Shown: in pieces, positions 30,001-60,000 of the stretch
Layout of the letters: each line of letters starts with the position of its first letter
How positions within the stretch are numbered: position 1 is the stretch's first letter
DNA from: a bacterium
GTDB taxonomy: Bacteria > RBG-13-61-14 > DATKZS01
DNA length: 64,000 nucleotides
Reading direction: 5' to 3'
NCBI GenBank assembly: GCA_963674965.2
Contig: CAXXFL010000006.1
Span: 704,001-768,000 of the forward strand
Position numbers: made by a program

Positions 30001-33000
30001 GCATAGGTCATCCCCGGGAAACGATTCTCTATGACCTGCTCGCTATGCTCGCCCATATAGCTGAGCTATATGGGTTACTTATATTTTAGCCCTTTTGTGG
30101 GTTTCCTGTTACAAAGCATTAATCCTCGTGCTCGGGATACAGCAGTGCTCTCAGTTTATTTTGAATTTCCCTCTCTTCTCCCTCGCTTGACGTGAAAGGA
30201 CGGTCATAGGCTTTGACGAACACTACTCCAGAAGCTTCCACTCTGGTTTCCAGCCAACTAGCGTTAAGCACGTCTTCTTTCTTCTTGCCCGTAATCTCCC
30301 AATATTTATCGCCAAACCACATTACCGAACCCACTTCCTCGAGATATCTGTCGCGAAACGTTCTCCTTCCCGGATTCTGAGACGTGTCTATAATCATCTT
30401 GTCTAATGGGTATGGGAGCCCGTTATGTTTCATGGGCAGATGGTCATAACTGCGGCCAGCGCTATCGTACTGCAACGGGTCATGCGCGTTCTGCCAATAT
30501 TCATAGTTTTCATCATAAACTCTTGCCTGGATAAAAGAATCGAAATCAAGAAAAGGCGCGATCCAGCCATATGATTGCCCAATCTCCTTTATACACTTTT
30601 CGATAAATACGAGAGAAAGGTTTTTATTACCTACATGGCCGTATTCTACTTTGATATTATCAAACTCGATGCCAAAGTGCTGGAGATTTCTTCTTTGGAT
30701 AGACTTCATAATATTCGATAGCTTTATTCTATTCCCATTAATATTGCCCCTTTCGTCAGGATCAATAATGTCCTTATGCGATTCAATAAGCGTTTTCCAA
30801 ATGGCCGTGGGTTTATAAAGCATATAAGGTAATACAATTTCAGCAGATAAATCCATTTAAGGGTACTCCTTTATATTGACATGGACATTGTATTTTTCTC
30901 CAAATTTAACCAAATAATCCGCATCGGATGATCCCCCCGGTTGTACTCTTAAATCCAATATCATATTGGCTGGATTATCGTTAACCGACCCTCTTCCAGA
31001 ACCTAGCTGTCTAATATGGCCTTCCATTCCACTCTTCCAGCCTGATCCAGTTGTATCGACAGATTTAACGCTGACAAGATTATTCCCTTTCTGGAAGTCC
31101 ACTAATGGGAAAGTGCCGCCGCCTTCTTTGCCTATATGGTGCCAATCACTATAATCCGTCTTGGCAAGAGCCTCCTCAATTTCTTTTCCACGCTGCAATG
31201 GGTCTTTGCTCCATACTCCTTTGGCCTTTTTGGCTATATCAACTGCCTCATCAGCATGACTTGCAACGTCGTCACCATACCTTGTGACACCGGAAATGAA
31301 AAGTCCAGCTTTTCTTACACCCGCGCCAGACGCGGCAGCTATTCCAACGCAACTCGTCGCCCGCCAGTACCATTGGAGTTCCGTAACATTTATTGCATCG
31401 TAGCCGCTGGTGCATTCGAATACATCGCGCACATCGTTGACACCCGGGACAAACGCCGTTGACAAGTCTGCAAACGTCTTTAATTCTTTTACAACTTCCT
31501 TGACGGAAACGGTCCCGCCAGATAGACTGCTATTCTCAGCCCACTGAGTATATCCAGGGCCGCCATATTGCATCCCATTCGAGTCCTGAAAGGTTATTGG
31601 ATTATTATGAGCGTACTCGTATTGATTAATAAGTCCTGGTATCGGGTCCGTACTAACGAACCTTCCTAAATCCGGGTCATACCAGCGAGCGCCCAGCTTA
31701 TAAAGGCCGACGTCATTATCTTGTCGGCGGCCGACGAAGCCGTGGGTGATGGAGGAGTTGGCGATGGTGAGGGGGTGGGAGGGCGAGCCGGCGAAGTCGG
31801 CGCCGAAGGGGAGATAGGCGCGGCGCCAGACGGTCTCGCCGTCGGAGTTGGTGGCGACCACCGGGGAGTGGAGACCGTAGTGGAGGTAGAGCCGCCGGGA
31901 GATATTGACCGAGGCGGCGCCCGAGTCGAGGAGGCTCGAGCCCGAGTCGTCCACCACGTCAATATCGAAATTTCCCGAGGCCTCGTCCCCGAGGTCGCCC
32001 GTGTCCACAAATATATAAGTCGCGCCCTCGGACACGGCCACCTCGATGGCGTAAACCGAGCCCGACCCATTATCGAAGCGCACCGTGTACGTCCCCGCGT
32101 CCAGCGCCCCCGCCACGGCCAGCTTGAGGGTGTCGCCCTCCTCGAGCTCGTCCGCCCAGGTGTCGCCGTCCCCGAGGGTCAGCTCGCCGATGGCGCTCTC
32201 GGCCAGGAGCCTAAGCCGCGCCGCGTCCAGCTCGGGCGTCGCCGAGTCTCCCTCCCCCGGCCCGCAAAGCTGGGTCGCTCCGTCCATGACGGAGGTCACG
32301 CCGTCGCACAGCCCGTCGCCGTCGGTGTCCGGATTGAATGGGTTGGTATAGAAATACCCCGAGTTCAGGTACTCCTCGAGGTTGGTCCTCCCGTCCCCGT
32401 CGGGGTCCTCGGCCGCGTCGCCCACCAGCGGGTCCAGCCCGGCCACGACCTCCCAATAATCGTCGATCCCGTCCCCATCCGAGTCGGCCAACAGCGGGTT
32501 GGTCCCCAGCCTCGCCTCGATAATGGCCGCCATCCCGTCCCCGTCATAATCCGCCACCGCCGTATCGCACTCCACCACCACCGGATCGAACCCCAAGCTA
32601 TCCGCGTACTCCACCTCCCACCCGTCCGTGAAGCCGTCAAAGTCGGAATCGGCGGAAGTAATAATGACAAGTTTTCAAAGAGCGGAGTTACATCTATATC
32701 GACAACTAAAGTGTACAATGCCCGTCTTCGGGTTGCCTATTCACAGCCGATAACACTGGCCCTGTATTTATCAAGATATTTAACGTTTGCTTTCTCTAAA
32801 GCATCTTCAAGACATTCTATTCCATTTTTTATTTTATAGTCCACTTCATCTTTTGTAATTGGAATTAACCAATAAAAAGAAACGGCATCATTGTTATTCT
32901 TTAATATTTCAAAGCCTGGACCGTCAAGATAAGGCAATGAAATAAGGCCATATTCACAATTGGAATCAGGCAACCATCCTCTTCCAAAATTAACGGTATG

Positions 33001-57000: not shown

Positions 57001-60000
57001 AACCCCGCATACGTCGCGTTTTAAGACGCTCTTTATATATGTTGCCCCTTCATAGAGCGTCTCCGTTTTCCAAACCCGGCCCCAGCCGTCGAGATACTCG
57101 ACGCTCTCGCGATTTCCGGTGACGCTTTTTCGCTTGTTCGTTACGTAATAGAGGTTTAAATCGTTGCCGCCGTCGGGTCCGTCAGTGGTGCTCGTGCCGC
57201 CCAGGTAGGAAATCTCCGTGTCCCATAGAGAGCCGGGACGATCTATGGAGGTTAGCCGGCCAAAATTGTCGTAGACGTAATTGTAGGTTAGAAGGCTGCC
57301 GCCGGCGTTCGGGACCTCCACCTTGGTCGCCTGGCCAAGGCCGTTATACTCCATGGTACCGGTCAAGGCCCCATTGTAAAGAGATACGTTCTGGGGACGA
57401 CCCATGATATAGTTCGTGTACGTGTTCTGGACCCCGCCGTCGCCGGCGGCGTTGGTTACGTTCCCGCCGTCATCGTATTCGAGACTGAGGGCGCTCATGT
57501 CCACCACCGAGGCCTCGAGCAGGCCGTTCGTCATGTTCGTCCGATACGCGCCCACGTTGCCCGAGCCGCCGTTAAGGCTGGTGTCCACGTTCGTGGTGAC
57601 GCCGATCATATAGGTGTCGCCGTTTACCTGGGCCTCGTGATCGAAGGCGTACTCGCTCGTCCTCGCGTAGCCGCCCATGGAGGACTCGACCTTGCCCGGA
57701 GAGTTGTACATGTTGAAGTCGCTCGCCTCCATCAGGTAGGTCAGCCCGTCGCGGGTCATTTCAACGCTCGAAATCGCCGGTACCGTGGGAATAGGATCGA
57801 TGAAGGTTTGGGATATCCCATTCTCGTACCTGTTGTAAGGAGTGTAAAAAGGCTGGAAAGTAACGCCTCCAAATTTTCTCAATCCCAGTAAAAATGGAGA
57901 AGGTAAGCCCGTCCAGCCATACTCCACGTCGCCAAGGGAAAAACTCGATTCATCGTCCCTTACTCCAGATAAATGAAGGGCCTTGGGTAAATACAATCGC
58001 CAGACCGTCCCGTTTTCGGTAATGGATGAGGTGTCGTAATAATAGTATTCCTTTTTCAGGGAGTAGAAGTGGGAACTGATATCAGTCCCACCCGATGGAT
58101 CGTATTGGCCGAAACATCGGTACATGTGAGGCCCGATAAATTTATCTATCTCGATGGTGGTCTGAAGTGTGCCCGCCTGATCGCCGCTTTCCACCTTGGT
58201 CATGGCGCTGAATACGTCTCGACGTGAGCCATAGTTTTTATCCGTTTCGACCCTGGTTGAGAGAGAGTACCACAAGTCTAACGGCGGAGTGCGCTCCCAT
58301 GGTCCGTCTTCATCCTCGTTCCACATCCATGGAGTTTCTCCATGATCGACTTGAGGATTATAATCGATGGCGGTATAGGAGTAAAATATATCCGTGCCCC
58401 ATGGGGTAATGATATGGCTAATGTAGTCTCCCGGACAGGTTAACGTGTAGTAAAATGGTTTTTCGGCTTGACGCGCGCAATTAACCCTTTCCGGGTCCGC
58501 GCCAGGGTCGATATCGCACGTGCAAAGTCCCGTGTCTCCTATTCCCAGGAAAGTATGCGACTCAAAATGCCAAAAGTCGGTGACGTCTTGGGAGTCGAGG
58601 GCGTCGGAAAGATCGTCTAATTCAATGGGCGCGGTATTGCCGGTTATTATGAAGGAATCCACCAGTTGATAGTCATTGGGGCCATAGAATTCACATGTAT
58701 AACCGTTCGTAACGTGTGAACGATAAAACTCCTCGGGAACTTCATGGTAATGGTAGTGCCGGCTGTATAAATATTCCTCGCCACGCCGAACGTCAAGTCT
58801 TTCAAGCTTCCCAGCGGGACGATCCGTCCTATATCTCGAATCGGCCGCGCTCCAGTCGGCGATCTGCGTCGTCATGTCCGAGTAAATGAAATCGACCGTG
58901 TAGACGCCCGTTTTTCCCGTCATAGTCACTTTTACAGGCTTTCCCCAATGACCATAGGTGCTTACTGAATTCGAATACTCTATCGTCACATGAGAACCGT
59001 TGGGGTAATCGACCTCGGTCAAAGCCAGATCGCGGCCTGAATAATTGTATCCCCAATGAAAAGAGTCCCATGTATTCTCATATGTCTTCCGAGTGCCGTC
59101 GGGAAGGAAAAGCGTGGCCTCCACGTGGCGAAATGGGCCTTCTTCTTCTATGCCTTTTGCAAGCGCCTCGAGCCTCCAGTTATTGTCGGAAAAATATAAT
59201 TCATGCCTGGCGTACATGTCAGGAAATGGGTACGGATCCGCCGAATTGTATACCTCCCAGTAATTGCCCCTCCAGGAACATCCAGTGCCAACGCAAGAAC
59301 TGAAATAGTGAATTTCACCGTCCTGGGTATATAAATACGCCTGAAACAATAAATCGTTCGTTTGGTCAATGAAGTCTACTCCGGTATACACGAATACGAT
59401 ATGTTCATTAAGAACGTCCCACGCCAAGCCATATGGAGATGGAGAGTGTTTGCTGGTGTAATTCAAATACAGCTCCAAGCCGACGCGGTCCTGAAAAGCC
59501 AAATAGTCCGACCTTCTGAATATGGAAAACCCGTACCCTCCATCCGACCCGACGGTAACGTCGGCCATAACGAAAATCGGGACGGCCGTCAGGGTGTCTA
59601 TGTATTCAAAACCGGATGGACTGTAATAATTTCGATAGGGAGAAATATAATTCAGTTGTAACTCCGCGGCGTCCGGCTTCATGGTCCCAGCCCCCATGGC
59701 CGTTACGCTCGGAATAAACAGTAACGCCAGCGCCGCCGTCAAGATAACCTTTACATTTACACGCTTCAATTTCATACCTCCCAGATATGCGCTTAAACTG
59801 ATCCCTGACCTTCACGACACGAAAAGGCGCAGGGAGAACAAGCAAAGCTTTCCCCTTCGGTTAAACAACCGGGATAAAGTAAATGGATTTTCGATCTCAT
59901 GCCCCAAATTAAAAGCCTCACGCCCGAAGACTCTCCCCAAGAGTCAAGACTGGACTTTTACCGCCGTAAATGAACTGGACGGCCCTTTTTCGTTCCTTAT

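Follow-up and report, generated by a model that had tools for sequence, protein, structure and literature searches.

What is the core of an Rhs toxin doing at the end of a lipoprotein of more than 3,000 residues? The question is raised by a stretch of 64,000 nucleotides (the window; positions 704,001 to 768,000 of contig C6), within which a giant TSP3-repeat lipoprotein is followed by five orphan modules of core and tip, one module remnant and six small immunity-type genes (Table 1). The genome has two further giants (C6:881384-891355 and C2:70140-80060; these coordinates count along the contigs), in agreement with the three counted in the survey's finding, and at all three loci the gene order is shell, HEAT-repeat protein, giant. 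We somewhat favour the view that the locus is a putative toxin weapon in which the usual one-piece Rhs protein comes in two parts, one of them a shell protein that is hollow and the other a giant stalk anchored at the cell surface. Likewise, it seems rather more probable than otherwise that the stalk bears the shell's plug together with an exchangeable toxin, spare toxin/immunity cassettes being kept behind it.

Table 1. Features of the locus; positions are counted from the first letter of the window
Feature	Position	Strand	Basis
Coreless YD/RHS-repeat shell protein, 1,505 aa	55258..59775	-	RHS_repeat, TIGR01643, signal peptide
HEAT-repeat protein, probable lipoprotein, about 273 aa from MKKTTC...	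54407..55228	-	Pfam HEAT_2 36.9 bits
Giant TSP3-repeat lipoprotein, 3,255 aa from first ATG	44616..54383	-	Lipobox, TSP3_bac, TIGR03696
Most variable part of giant body, aa 1951-2250	47634..48533	-	Paralog identity
Recombination module common to orphans, giant aa 2654-3011 (last TSP3 repeats, pre-core domain, core)	45353..46424	-	blastn
Rhs-associated core (plug and aspartyl autoprotease region), giant aa 2933-3013	45345..45587	-	TIGR03696 63.1 bits
Giant tip, 242 aa	44619..45344	-	Hydrophobic glycine-rich first half, unassigned last half
Putative immunity gene behind giant, 145 aa	44156..44593	-	Position only
Orphan 1, 5'-truncated; 247-aa tip at 42610-43350	42607..44025	-	TIGR03696 67.5 bits
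Imm11-like gene, 221 aa	41933..42598	-	Pfam Imm11 18.8 bits, under cut-off 22.1
Orphan 2; 217-aa tip at 40141-40791	40138..41799	-	TIGR03696 67.0 bits
DUF4304 gene, putative immunity, 204 aa	39295..39909	-	Pfam DUF4304 67.5 bits
IS110-family transposase gene, inserted in array	37718..38872	+	Pfam Transposase_20 and DEDD_Tnp_IS110
Orphan 3; 235-aa tip at 35771-36475	35768..37516	-	TIGR03696 62.0 bits
Imm11 / double-CXXCG (SitI6-like) gene, 207 aa	35132..35755	-	Pfam Imm11 22.6 bits (cut-off 22.1)
Orphan 4; 227-aa tip at 33303-33983	33300..35024	-	TIGR03696 67.0 bits
SUFU-family immunity-type gene, 188 aa	32737..33303	-	Pfam SUFU 55.2 bits
Orphan 5; 238-aa tip at 30860-31573	30857..32614	-	TIGR03696 68.4 bits
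Putative immunity gene, 245 aa	30119..30856	-	Position only
Orphan remnant without core	29182..29904	-	No TIGR03696; 588 nt match giant at 91.5%

From N to C terminus the giant consists of a signal peptide with lipobox (VIVGC, Cys24, kept in all three paralogous giants), a unique N-terminal region (aa 30-860), a stalk of TSP3 repeats, a middle domain that varies, further TSP3 repeats, a pre-core beta-sandwich, the Rhs core and a toxin tip; an alternative start at the ATG at 54329 gives 3,237 aa. As reported earlier, TSP3_bac is its only Pfam family. The description of the giants as built of these repeats holds in part only, about 860 aa at the N terminus and about 450 aa in mid-protein giving no match to them. 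The sole relative of the N-terminal 830 aa among proteins of 1,790-5,697 aa is the giant's own paralog. The most variable part of the body (35-49% identity to the paralogs, against up to 86-100% in adjoining windows) has no named family, and an atlas search returned unnamed clusters only; it is a candidate target-recognition domain. Family profile searches found no YD repeats in the giant. Its end, previously called Rhs-like, is a family match well over the 32.5-bit cut-off of TIGR03696 (Rhs_assc_core), and the core aligns to the C-terminal plug/cleavage regions of TccC3, YenC2, RhsA, SGS1 and a teneurin-like protein, through their last residues.

Where, then, is the shell? The upstream RHS-repeat genes had been listed as genes of 841 and 981 aa and as mere context. 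In the window there is instead a single ORF (called as 1,503 aa in a public collection), and the C2 copy alone is split (582 + 892 aa), interrupted by an IS110-family gene. The window protein begins with a type-I signal peptide, MKLKRVNVKVILTAALALLFIPSVTA, and ends in ...RKLYVYANGQMVAQF, directly ahead of the point where a canonical Rhs core starts. It passes the cut-offs of RHS_repeat in Pfam (28.4 against 22 bits) and of TIGR01643 (31.5 against 15.8 bits); a profile search found no TIGR03696 core in it, and RHS_repeat is the sole entry in its precomputed Pfam record, from which TEN_YD-shell is absent. When it was compared with the genome's own 2,907-aa Rhs protein, shell aa 690-1474 fell on positions 1789-2611 and giant aa 2891-3028 on 2590-2725, and when 11 Rhs proteins not of this genome were aligned with it, the shell ended just ahead of the core start of those that bear a core. 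Its last 100 aa are its most conserved window (88-92% identity among paralogs versus 32-79% elsewhere). Because the upstream YD shell is coreless and ends where the giant's core begins, an Rhs protein appears to be split over the two genes; on these alignments the system is a split two-gene Rhs and not a shell-less Rhs-like end.

The HEAT gene lies between shell and giant in all three loci, and in the window its ORF is open up to 55348. The protein is 70-73% identical to its two paralogs (86-93% in the C-terminal half); all three copies have a hydrophobic stretch followed by Cys, and it is probably a lipoprotein. Long frames are intact in two shells (1,505 and 1,568 aa) and in the three giants (about 3,250-3,320 aa). 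Values of dN/dS came to 0.18 (shell), 0.21-0.33 (giant) and 0.27-0.28 (HEAT gene) in the two diverged pairs, a range (0.18-0.33) that indicates an operon under purifying selection.

Prediction of a complex between shell aa 626-1505 (880 of the 1,505 residues) and core aa 2901-3015, the tip being left out, gave an ipSAE of 0.83, compared with 0.00 for the best of three controls; the score mark used is one that 51 of 78 solved complexes attain, as do 2 of 108 mismatched pairs. The runs share at least 83% of contacts, with partner pLDDT of at least 76. In the predicted complex the shell's last residues (1500-1505) lie paired with the core's first strand, and the core contacts five stretches of the shell. 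The model may owe this pass to its memory of solved cocoons, one-piece Rhs and TcB-TcC, and since a protein cut into halves tends to give a pass, the result is evidence of likeness and not of binding. A further point against the split-Rhs reading is that single chains were predicted poorly by AlphaFold2, with a mean pLDDT of 42.7 at the end of the giant and, from only three aligned sequences, of 30.2 in the shell.

The orphans do, as the survey stated, repeat the end of the giant's body and then diverge. In blastn comparisons the giant shares 1,072-1,081 nt (about 1,075 nt) with four of them at 91.6-94.5% nucleotide identity, 587 nt with the 5'-truncated orphan 1, whose likeness begins at giant aa 2820, and 588 nt with the remnant; in the orphans the resemblance does not go on past the core. 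All five match TIGR03696 (62.0-68.4 bits), and all five lack start codon context and a signal peptide. The junction of the remnant recurs at C6:879179-879901 (96% identical). Insertion sequences are abundant in the region (IS110, IS3, ISL3).

For the giant's tip Pfam gave no match at E <= 0.1; the first 110 aa of this tip are 100% identical to the tip of the orphan at C2:99174-100979, and its last 110 aa are unrelated. Similarly, the orphan 4 tip agrees with that of the C2 giant over its first 110 aa (98% identity) and differs in its last 110 aa. The tip of orphan 1 is 100% identical to that at C2:83749-85425, the tip of orphan 2 has a weak restriction-endonuclease-fold match (MTES_1575, 19.1 bits, cut-off 38.2), that of orphan 3 has no Pfam match, and that of orphan 5 matches the PT-TG pre-toxin domain slightly below the cut-off (22.2 versus 23.5 bits). 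By eye, a HAHH motif can be seen in orphan 1 and a HMHH motif in orphan 3.

Small genes co-vary with the tips, an identical tip going with an identical small gene (100% and 100%) and a different tip with an unrelated one. The 221-aa Imm11-like gene has a 100% identical counterpart following the identical tip on C2, the DUF4304 gene is 78% identical to the gene behind a related C2 tip, and the SUFU gene has a 99% identical copy behind the C2 giant. SuFu is among the immunity superfamilies (PMC3482391). Pfam cut-offs are passed by three of the six small genes in the window (SUFU, Imm11 and DUF4304). The 207-aa gene scores 23.5 bits against TIGR02264 (SitI6), far under its cut-off of 100; profile searches gave no family for the 145-aa gene, which by eye has no signal peptide, or for the 245-aa gene.

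Genome-wide there are 17 modules with an intact core, namely the three giants and 14 orphans (five in the window, nine on C2), plus four remnants, rather than the 14 modules with 11 orphans counted before; 17 of the 32 core matches in the genome belong to this family. The ten tip types of the earlier count are recovered from the first 110 aa, but the last 110 aa form 14 clusters among the 17 modules, which makes the tips two-part. Only one of 14 tips passes a Pfam cut-off, which counts against the split-Rhs reading. Tips have been exchanged between giant and orphan positions across the paralogous loci. All 17 modules keep the second catalytic motif; in two the Asp of the first is replaced by Glu, a point against the split-Rhs reading. 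The Rhs-type core, the displaced orphan tips and the immunity-type small genes support a polymorphic toxin locus, and the scored core and the three scored small genes bear out the toxin-module reading proposed before; toxicity and immunity are deduced from families and gene order.

Is the split peculiar to this genome? The same design was found in all four outside loci examined (L092, L093, L094 and L023, metagenomic and unrelated): each has a signal-peptide YD protein without TIGR03696, followed by a core gene with a signal-peptide-like start and a TIGR03696 score of 69-80 bits. Moreover, among the 150 nearest cluster representatives there are 101 short proteins whose core lies close to the start, and by a crude test 79 of these 101 have a signal-peptide-like N-terminus.

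On balance we lean towards a Sec-dependent polymorphic toxin system based on a split Rhs and not reliant on type VI secretion. Gene 1 would encode a signal-peptide YD-repeat shell minus its C-terminal core (the plug), gene 2 a small HEAT-repeat probable lipoprotein, and gene 3 the 3,255-aa lipoprotein, whose calcium-binding TSP3 repeats would form a long stalk with, at its far end, a small beta-sandwich, the missing core with its two aspartate motifs, and a cargo of 217-247 aa. After export the core would dock in trans into the open end of the shell, closing it with the cargo inside, and would cleave after ...D-x-x-G; the lipid-anchored stalk would show the loaded shell to a neighbouring cell. 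The first half of the cargo may serve entry and the second half would usually be a nuclease, sister cells being protected by the cytoplasmic product of the small gene behind each tip. The orphans would be spare cassettes that recombination across the shared module of about 1.07 kb could transfer to a giant.

The core might instead work alone, as a self-cleaving release module before the toxin, and the YD protein might be a secreted protein in its own right, an adhesin for instance, and not bind the core. We regard this as unlikely, though worth serious consideration: cores follow Ig-like, PKD or fn3 stalks without YD repeats in P0280, P0299, P0338 and P0359, the complex pass may be memory, and the C2 giant is intact beside a broken shell, so that it either borrows a paralogous shell or needs none. 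However, the plug is embedded deep in the barrel in the solved Rhs proteins (PMC8636562), AlphaFold2 gave no confident fold of the core by itself, and the shell ends exactly at the core boundary here and in the four outside loci, the core gene always adjoining and the C-terminal end of the shell being its most conserved part. The interrupted C2 shell, together with the four remnants and the wealth of insertion sequences, could also mean that a former one-piece Rhs was broken by rearrangements and is decaying, the giant being an adhesin with a dead toxin end. The long intact frames, the dN/dS values, the universal second catalytic motif and the recurrence of the split in unrelated lineages make this improbable.

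Delivery without the shell is the essence of a further, very improbable scheme, in which the giant is an outer-membrane lipoprotein passed to kin by membrane exchange. The SitA toxins of myxobacteria, which would be the precedent, are short proteins, unlike the 3,255-aa stalk. The lipobox, the likeness of the repeats to the gliding lipoprotein CglD (311 bits, cut-off 400) and the weakly SitI6-like small gene fit the scheme, but both matches are under cut-off and the coreless shell is left unexplained. Least credible of all is that the genome's type VI secretion system carries these modules as its cargo, even though the majority of studied Rhs toxins are such cargo and the genome has TssC genes, as noted before, and one PAAR gene. 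Shell, HEAT protein and giant carry N-terminal export signals, none of 16 locus proteins scanned has a PAAR or VgrG family, and the TssC genes (contig C7) and the single PAAR gene (C6:931879, about 174 kb from the giant) are all unlinked, which makes this route unlikely.

How does a split Rhs compare with known systems? Canonical Rhs/YD toxins such as type VI Rhs1 of Photorhabdus laumondii likewise have YD-repeat shell material, a core whose two aspartate motifs are spaced by about 21-22 residues, a C-terminal toxin that varies, an adjoining immunity gene and orphan modules of core and tip behind the main gene, but there shell, plug and toxin are one chain without signal peptide, carried on VgrG via PAAR (PMC8636562). 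In the present locus, shell and plug plus toxin are separate Sec-signal proteins, the latter ending a 3,000-aa TSP3 lipoprotein. The tips (217-247 aa) are larger than the 9-20 kDa given for type VI Rhs toxins in the same source (PMC8636562), which counts against the split-Rhs reading. The BC cocoon of Tc (ABC) toxins resembles the locus in being made of two polypeptides, TcB and TcC, and in that one shell partner accepts alternative cargo-bearing partners encoded elsewhere, as YenB does with alternative YenC (PMC11067744); the giant's core, as noted, aligns to TccC3 and YenC2. There, however, TcC supplies about half of the shell plus its own core, TcB supplies the beta-propeller gate and the TcA translocator is required, whereas in our locus one protein bears the entire shell and its partner contributes just the plug; the genome yielded no SpvB-type TcB domain. 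Bacterial teneurin-like proteins, too, are toxins of the cell surface: they have a YD shell, their C-terminal domain is polymorphic, and the operon includes an immunity gene. Those of Gram-negatives are predicted to be lipoproteins whose export runs through Sec and signal peptidase II, a dedicated injection machine being absent. Each is one chain that contains TIP, FN-plug and beta-propeller domains (PMC13018210). In our locus the lipid anchor is on the stalk protein and not on the shell.

CglD and other Myxococcus TSP3 lipoproteins (NF033765) are similarly rich in bacterial TSP3 repeats, but the likeness is confined to the repeats and CglD has no Rhs core or toxin. CdiA presents a C-terminal toxin on a long repeat stalk, with a two-part tip (entry and toxin halves) and orphan tip/immunity arrays; it is exported by CdiB through a TPS domain, has FHA repeats, and its tip is demarcated by VENN. 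The giant shares with it the stalk, the two-part tip, the orphan arrays and a variable middle domain as candidate receptor binder; the TPS, FHA and VENN features were not found in it by Pfam. Finally, WapA of Gram-positives is a toxin of the Rhs family that depends on Sec, is anchored at the surface and has immunity genes; in these respects it is like the system described here, but it is unlike it in being a single YD-repeat chain anchored to the cell wall.

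The 3,255-aa giant lipoprotein of the window has TSP3_bac as its sole Pfam family, and its lipobox is kept in all three paralogous giants of the genome. YD repeats (TIGR01643) are absent from it; they sit in a separate protein upstream. The survey's finding had been that the giants carry an Rhs-like motif near their ends, a judgement made by eye. NCBIfam places the Rhs-associated core (TIGR03696) at residues 2933-3013 with 63.1 bits against a cut-off of 32.5, and because this score is above the cut-off the motif now stands as a scored family match. Against the same cut-off the five full orphans downstream (modules of core plus variable tip) reach 62.0-68.4 bits, and TIGR03696 is absent from the 240-aa remnant at the array end. 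The core aligns to the C-terminal plugs of the solved TccC3, YenC2, RHS2, RhsA, SGS1 and a teneurin-like protein, and these alignments reach the very ends of the solved chains that stop at the cleavage site.

The upstream protein, called the shell here, has a type-I signal peptide and scores above the cut-off for RHS_repeat (28.4 bits against 22) and for TIGR01643 (31.5 bits against 15.8); Pfam and NCBIfam scans found no TIGR03696 core in it. Shell residues 690-1474 align to positions 1789-2611 of the genome's own canonical 2,907-aa Rhs protein, and giant residues 2891-3028 align to positions 2590-2725 of the same protein, with little overlap and no gap. When 11 outside Rhs proteins were aligned, the end of the shell (...RKLYVYANGQMVA) fell in the column just ahead of the core start (Y-Y-x-H-x-D-x-L-G-S...) of the core-bearing members, and the giant's core opens with residues matching that start. 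Since the shell end abuts the core start, shell and giant complement each other as parts of a single Rhs. The shell sequence had no significant match in the PDB, and AlphaFold2 gave an unusable model of its residues 306-1505 (mean pLDDT 30.2 with 3 aligned sequences) and a poor one of giant residues 2790-3255 (mean pLDDT 42.7, with only the beta-sandwich before the core reaching 58-78).

Shell and core were also submitted to complex prediction, using residues 626-1505 of the shell and 2901-3015 of the giant, with the tip left out. The pair scored 0.83 and the best of three controls 0.00; the mark set for this score is attained by 51 of 78 solved complexes and by 2 of 108 mismatched pairs. Contact agreement among runs was at least 83% and partner pLDDT at least 76. 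In the predicted complex, shell residues 1500-1505 pair with residues 8-10 of the core piece, and the core contacts five separate stretches of the shell, as expected of an embedded plug. According to PMC8636562, the C-terminal plug sits deep within the barrel and constitutes an aspartyl protease domain. Because like complexes have been solved both as single chains and as TcB-TcC, the high score may come from the model's memory of these. What the prediction shows is that the modelled pieces look like two parts of an Rhs, which is likeness and not binding; it is this model that suggests physical assembly of the two.

Shell, HEAT protein and giant form an operon of which the genome has three copies, one in the window, one at C6:881-897 kb and one at C2:63-80 kb (C1 to C7 being contigs of this genome and C6 the contig of the window), each behind unrelated upstream genes. 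The upstream neighbour in the window, a 2,840-aa protein whose domain is of the InhA-like MAM / choice-of-anchor J type, has no conserved counterpart at either of the other loci. The shell is intact in two of the copies (1,505 and 1,568 aa), and an IS110-family gene interrupts the one on C2. Between paralogs dN/dS is 0.18 for the shell and 0.21-0.33 for the giant, and for the HEAT protein it is 0.27-0.28 in two diverged pairs. These values (0.18-0.33), the three copies and the two intact shells speak against a reading of the locus as decaying. The last 100 residues of the shell, with 88-92% identity between paralogs, are the most conserved of its fifteen 100-aa windows (32-79% in the rest), which would fit a need to match a nearly invariant core. 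Insertion sequences (ISL3, IS3 with HTH_Tnp_1 and rve, IS110) are plentiful around and inside the loci, and it is a related IS110-family gene that splits the C2 shell. The insertion-sequence-rich flank also borders a gene for a 556-aa protein with a caspase (Peptidase_C14) domain. A further 15 Rhs core matches of the genome lie in ordinary Rhs loci, among them the 2,907-aa one-piece Rhs, so split and one-piece forms coexist.

Features of the proposed split Rhs loci and their surroundings (positions without prefix are in the window; empty cells, no value)
Feature	Position	Strand	Remarks
Shell protein, 1,505 aa	55258-59775	minus	
HEAT-repeat protein	54407-55228	minus	between shell and giant
Giant, 3,255 aa	44616-54383	minus	
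Small genes and partial giant-end copies (array)	reaches down to 29182	minus	
Array-end remnants	29182-29904; C6:879179-879901		last module of each C6 array
Serine recombinase region	28094-29904		
Stray module remnants	C1:910702-911784; C1:1464671-1465084		distant from any giant
Insertion sequences	23533-24435; 26495-28047; 37718-38872; L085:5518-6534		
Caspase-domain protein	21685-23355		
MAM-domain neighbour	60987-64000		runs on to C6:773509
Ordinary Rhs loci	C4:370-381 kb; C2:10-17 kb; C6:476-480 kb; C6:847-858 kb; C1:685-690 kb; C3:236 kb		
L092 shell			1,143-aa signal-peptide YD protein, ends ...EYIYLGNMRIAQRMSYQ
L092 partner	111 nt downstream of shell		630 aa; signal peptide, Big_3_5 repeats, core, tip
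L093			shell ending in Ig domain, then five genes, each with signal peptide directly before core, plus tip
L094			shell ending in TSP3-like repeats, then two signal-peptide+core+tip genes
L023			1,840-aa shell, then one signal-peptide+core+tip gene
LPAIL-x-LLLDD motif	L093:10230-10276; L092:9940-9990		
Type II secretion / type IV pilus F and E genes	L092:13142-16026		

The giants themselves are mosaics. Residues 1351-1950 of the window giant (window 48536-50333), a TSP3 stretch, are 98-100% identical to those of the C2 giant, compared with 42-95% outside this stretch, which points to recent gene conversion between the two. In residues 1951-2250 the paralogs share only 35-49% identity, making this variable part a candidate recognition domain. 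A protein atlas gave a Big_5/PD40-like lead (0.82) for the N-terminal region and unnamed clusters only for the middle domain.

The genome-wide count of modules whose core is intact is 17, made up of 3 giants and 14 orphans (5 of the orphans in the window, 9 on C2); 4 remnants come on top of these. The second aspartate motif, D-x-x-G, is kept in all 17; the first, 21 residues away, is DP in 15 and EP in the other two. In PMC8636562, the two aspartate motifs are 17 residues apart and the catalytic Asp is in the second. Across all 17 modules the core is nearly invariant. Four orphans have 1,072-1,081 nt in common with the region encoding giant residues 2654-3011, at 91.6-94.5% nucleotide identity; one orphan is truncated at its 5' end, its likeness beginning at residue 2820, and the last copy of the array is truncated at its 3' end. 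In every case the likeness stops at the ...D-x-x-G end of the core. Behind it come tips of 217-247 aa, which form 10 clusters by their first 110 residues and 14 by their last 110; since these counts differ, the tips are two-part and their halves reassort. The giant's own tip has a first half 100% shared with a C2 orphan and an unrelated second half.

A Pfam scan of 14 tips, with three near-duplicates left out, put one above its cut-off (HNH, 32.7 bits against 21.4, in the tip of the C2 giant). Five had sub-threshold toxin-type matches only (MTES_1575 restriction fold, Col-Pyo DNase/LHH, PT-TG twice, and a faint Endonuclea_NS_2 at E 0.03), one had only a chance-level HTH match, and seven had no Pfam match. 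Half of the six small genes behind the window tips exceed Pfam cut-offs (SUFU 55.2 bits, DUF4304 67.5, Imm11 22.6); one more is Imm11-like under the cut-off and two are without a Pfam family. PMC3482391 counts SuFu and Imm11 among immunity families and names AHH, HNH and SHH nucleases as partners of Imm11. By eye, HAHH and HMHH were found in two tips that precede Imm11-type genes, and no signal peptide was seen in any of the six small genes.

From locus to locus, tips and small genes vary together. A tip 100% identical between loci is followed by a 221-aa gene that is also 100% identical, a tip 86-93% identical by a DUF4304 gene 78% identical, and tips with unrelated ends by unrelated small genes. 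Some tips are found on a giant at one locus and in an orphan at another, an exchange that is the prediction of C-terminal displacement. A variable C-terminal tip of toxin type, a putative cognate immunity gene and orphan modules, as in Rhs/YD polymorphic toxins, are by these matches present here too. The window orphans have neither a signal peptide nor an evident start, their frames opening on a stop codon inside the homology, and are therefore silent cassettes.

Logan contigs from three sequencing runs of one study carry the stretch; no RNA run carrying it is listed among the sequencing runs. Two of the runs, both from one sample that is probably the source, contain the unique pieces of tips and immunity genes without differences. 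The joints in the run contigs have short sides of 20-44 letters inside repeats and are uninformative on recombination, and the third run holds only 151-236-nt pieces. The two C6 array-end remnants are cut at the same point and are 96% identical, so that a shared insertion event, or a duplication including the array end, could account for both. The window remnant abuts a large serine recombinase gene without the N-terminal catalytic domain (Pfam Recombinase and Zn_ribbon_recom only).

How does this arrangement compare with known systems? Present Rhs biology is built on one-piece proteins, whose shell folds round the C-terminal toxin of the same chain, and on the TcB-TcC cocoon with its half-and-half make-up. 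As in one-piece Rhs/YD toxins, a TIGR03696 core directly precedes the variable tip, here in 17 modules, and the window system works like an Rhs toxin; it falls outside the one-piece definition because shell repeats and toxin, joined there in one polypeptide, are on different chains. TcB-TcC is the nearest known two-chain cocoon, and YenB reportedly pairs with alternative YenC subunits; each chain there contributes half of the shell, whereas here a shell without its plug stands alone on one protein. The Tc BC subcomplex also has a TcB with SpvB and beta-propeller, plus a TcA translocator. As SpvB (PF03534) has no match in this 97.6% complete genome, a Tc-like machine is not supported. Bacterial teneurin-like proteins are described in PMC13018210 as lipoprotein-anchored shell toxins that are single chains. 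Those combine TIP domain, FN-plug, beta-propeller and TEN_YD-shell, whereas here core and toxin are on another chain; the shell's Pfam record is RHS_repeat only, with PF25023 in 84 of 84 outside matches. The adventurous-gliding lipoprotein CglD (NF033765) was discarded for the giant, which scores 311 bits against a cut-off of 400 in 8 stretches, repeats only. So was contact-dependent inhibition (CdiA/CdiB), no TPS domain, FHA repeats or CdiB partner being found in the giant or its neighbours by Pfam at E <= 0.01. PMC12057145 reports large proteins of PVC-group MAGs that combine TSP3 repeats with Rhs domains and were interpreted as catabolic or adhesive. Among the repeats that PMC3482391 gives for Sec-exported toxins are RHS, ALF and tail-fibre; neither 'TSP' nor 'thrombospondin' occurs in the 300,000 characters of its text searched. 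With the TSP3 giant, the known stalks of polymorphic toxins gain a new type.

On the observed parts, family matches, complementarity, selection, cassette structure and recurrence we place the following reading, a Sec-exported split Rhs made of a shell and a giant stalk bearing plug and toxin, which we consider somewhat probable. Shell, HEAT protein and giant would be exported by Sec, and the giant stalk would be lipid-anchored and displayed at the surface. The plug would dock on the shell in trans and the core cleave itself after the second aspartate motif. The two-part cargo might then enter a neighbouring cell and act as a nuclease, against which the cytoplasmic product of the small gene would protect.

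The main alternative is that the core functions without the shell. In its favour, the C2 giant is intact beside its IS-broken shell, the tips are large, and no route for cargo into a pre-folded shell is known; even so we regard this alternative as rather improbable. A type VI route is unlikely. Type VI cargo is linked to PAAR or VgrG and has no Sec signal, whereas here shell, HEAT protein and giant bear export signals, and the TssC on contig C7 and the single PAAR gene (C6:931879) are both unlinked.

Does the split occur elsewhere? Outside this genome the closest relatives of the shell are ordinary Rhs proteins (22-26% identity), and neither the shell nor the module of core plus preceding beta-sandwich was found in 40 other genomes (12 of the same class). 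An exhaustive search of 1.84 billion cluster representatives with this module gave only 13 matches at E <= 1e-30, most of them from this genome; at 46-48% identity it matches four metagenomic fragments, one of them encoding P0218 (763 aa on a 2.8-kb contig), with TSP3 repeats, the pre-core domain, core and tip. A homolog search with giant residues 2640-3015 was dominated by TSP3 repeats; the core was present in one of ten long matches checked (P0061, which has YD repeats). A profile search of genome contigs with the family alignment found no relative. Metagenomes yielded 480 relatives, the 80 kept of which match the generic core only; in a heuristic census of 80 metagenome loci, ordinary Rhs genes and orphans made up most of what was found, with one additional split case. 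In one order, 23 of 61 genomes have core matches.

Outside loci of split type came from a genome search seeded with an Ig-repeat+core protein (the MAG loci L092, L093 and L094) and from the metagenome set (L023). A signal-peptide YD shell without core, beside a signal-peptide protein with core and tip, was found in the window and in all four outside loci examined, and in each of the four TIGR03696 is absent from the shell and scores 69-80 bits in the next gene. Short proteins (<=420 aa) whose core lies close to the start make up 101 of the nearest 150 cluster representatives. Judged by a crude hydrophobicity test, 79 of these have a signal-peptide-like N-terminus, so separately exported plug+toxin proteins are common. 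The window's family is rare and the split principle recurrent, the window system being the variant in which the plug+toxin unit is fused to a giant lipoprotein stalk. In the literature searched, with subscription journals largely outside it, a coreless shell paired with a plug+toxin from a gene of its own is nowhere described, and the terms 'split Rhs' and 'bipartite Rhs' do not occur.

Tentatively, and with some doubt, we propose a widespread, undescribed two-component Rhs, in which an open YD shell exported by Sec would be loaded after export by interchangeable plug+toxin proteins and closed in trans. Many ~300-aa signal-peptide proteins annotated 'RHS repeat-associated core domain' would then be working cargo subunits and not orphans. 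Here the cargo subunit would be grafted onto a giant calcium-binding lipoprotein stalk, giving a type-VI-independent, contact-dependent weapon whose warhead could be swapped from a store of 14 cassettes. If this is true, a shell missing only its plug, beside a separately exported plug+toxin, means that the cocoon can be closed in trans. It would also give a simple means to load one shell with many toxins, a function for a large class of short signal-peptide core proteins now annotated by domain only, and a natural two-part system for the study of cargo entry into and exit from Rhs shells.

One short motif, LPAIL-x-LLLDD, is shared by the L093 shell, where it stands at the C-terminal end, and the stalk-core protein of L092, where it follows directly on the signal peptide; in split systems it may serve for docking or sorting. 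In L092, from a Gammaproteobacteria MAG, the split Rhs pair has F and E genes of type II secretion / type IV pili ~1.4 kb downstream of it, and a link to export is possible.
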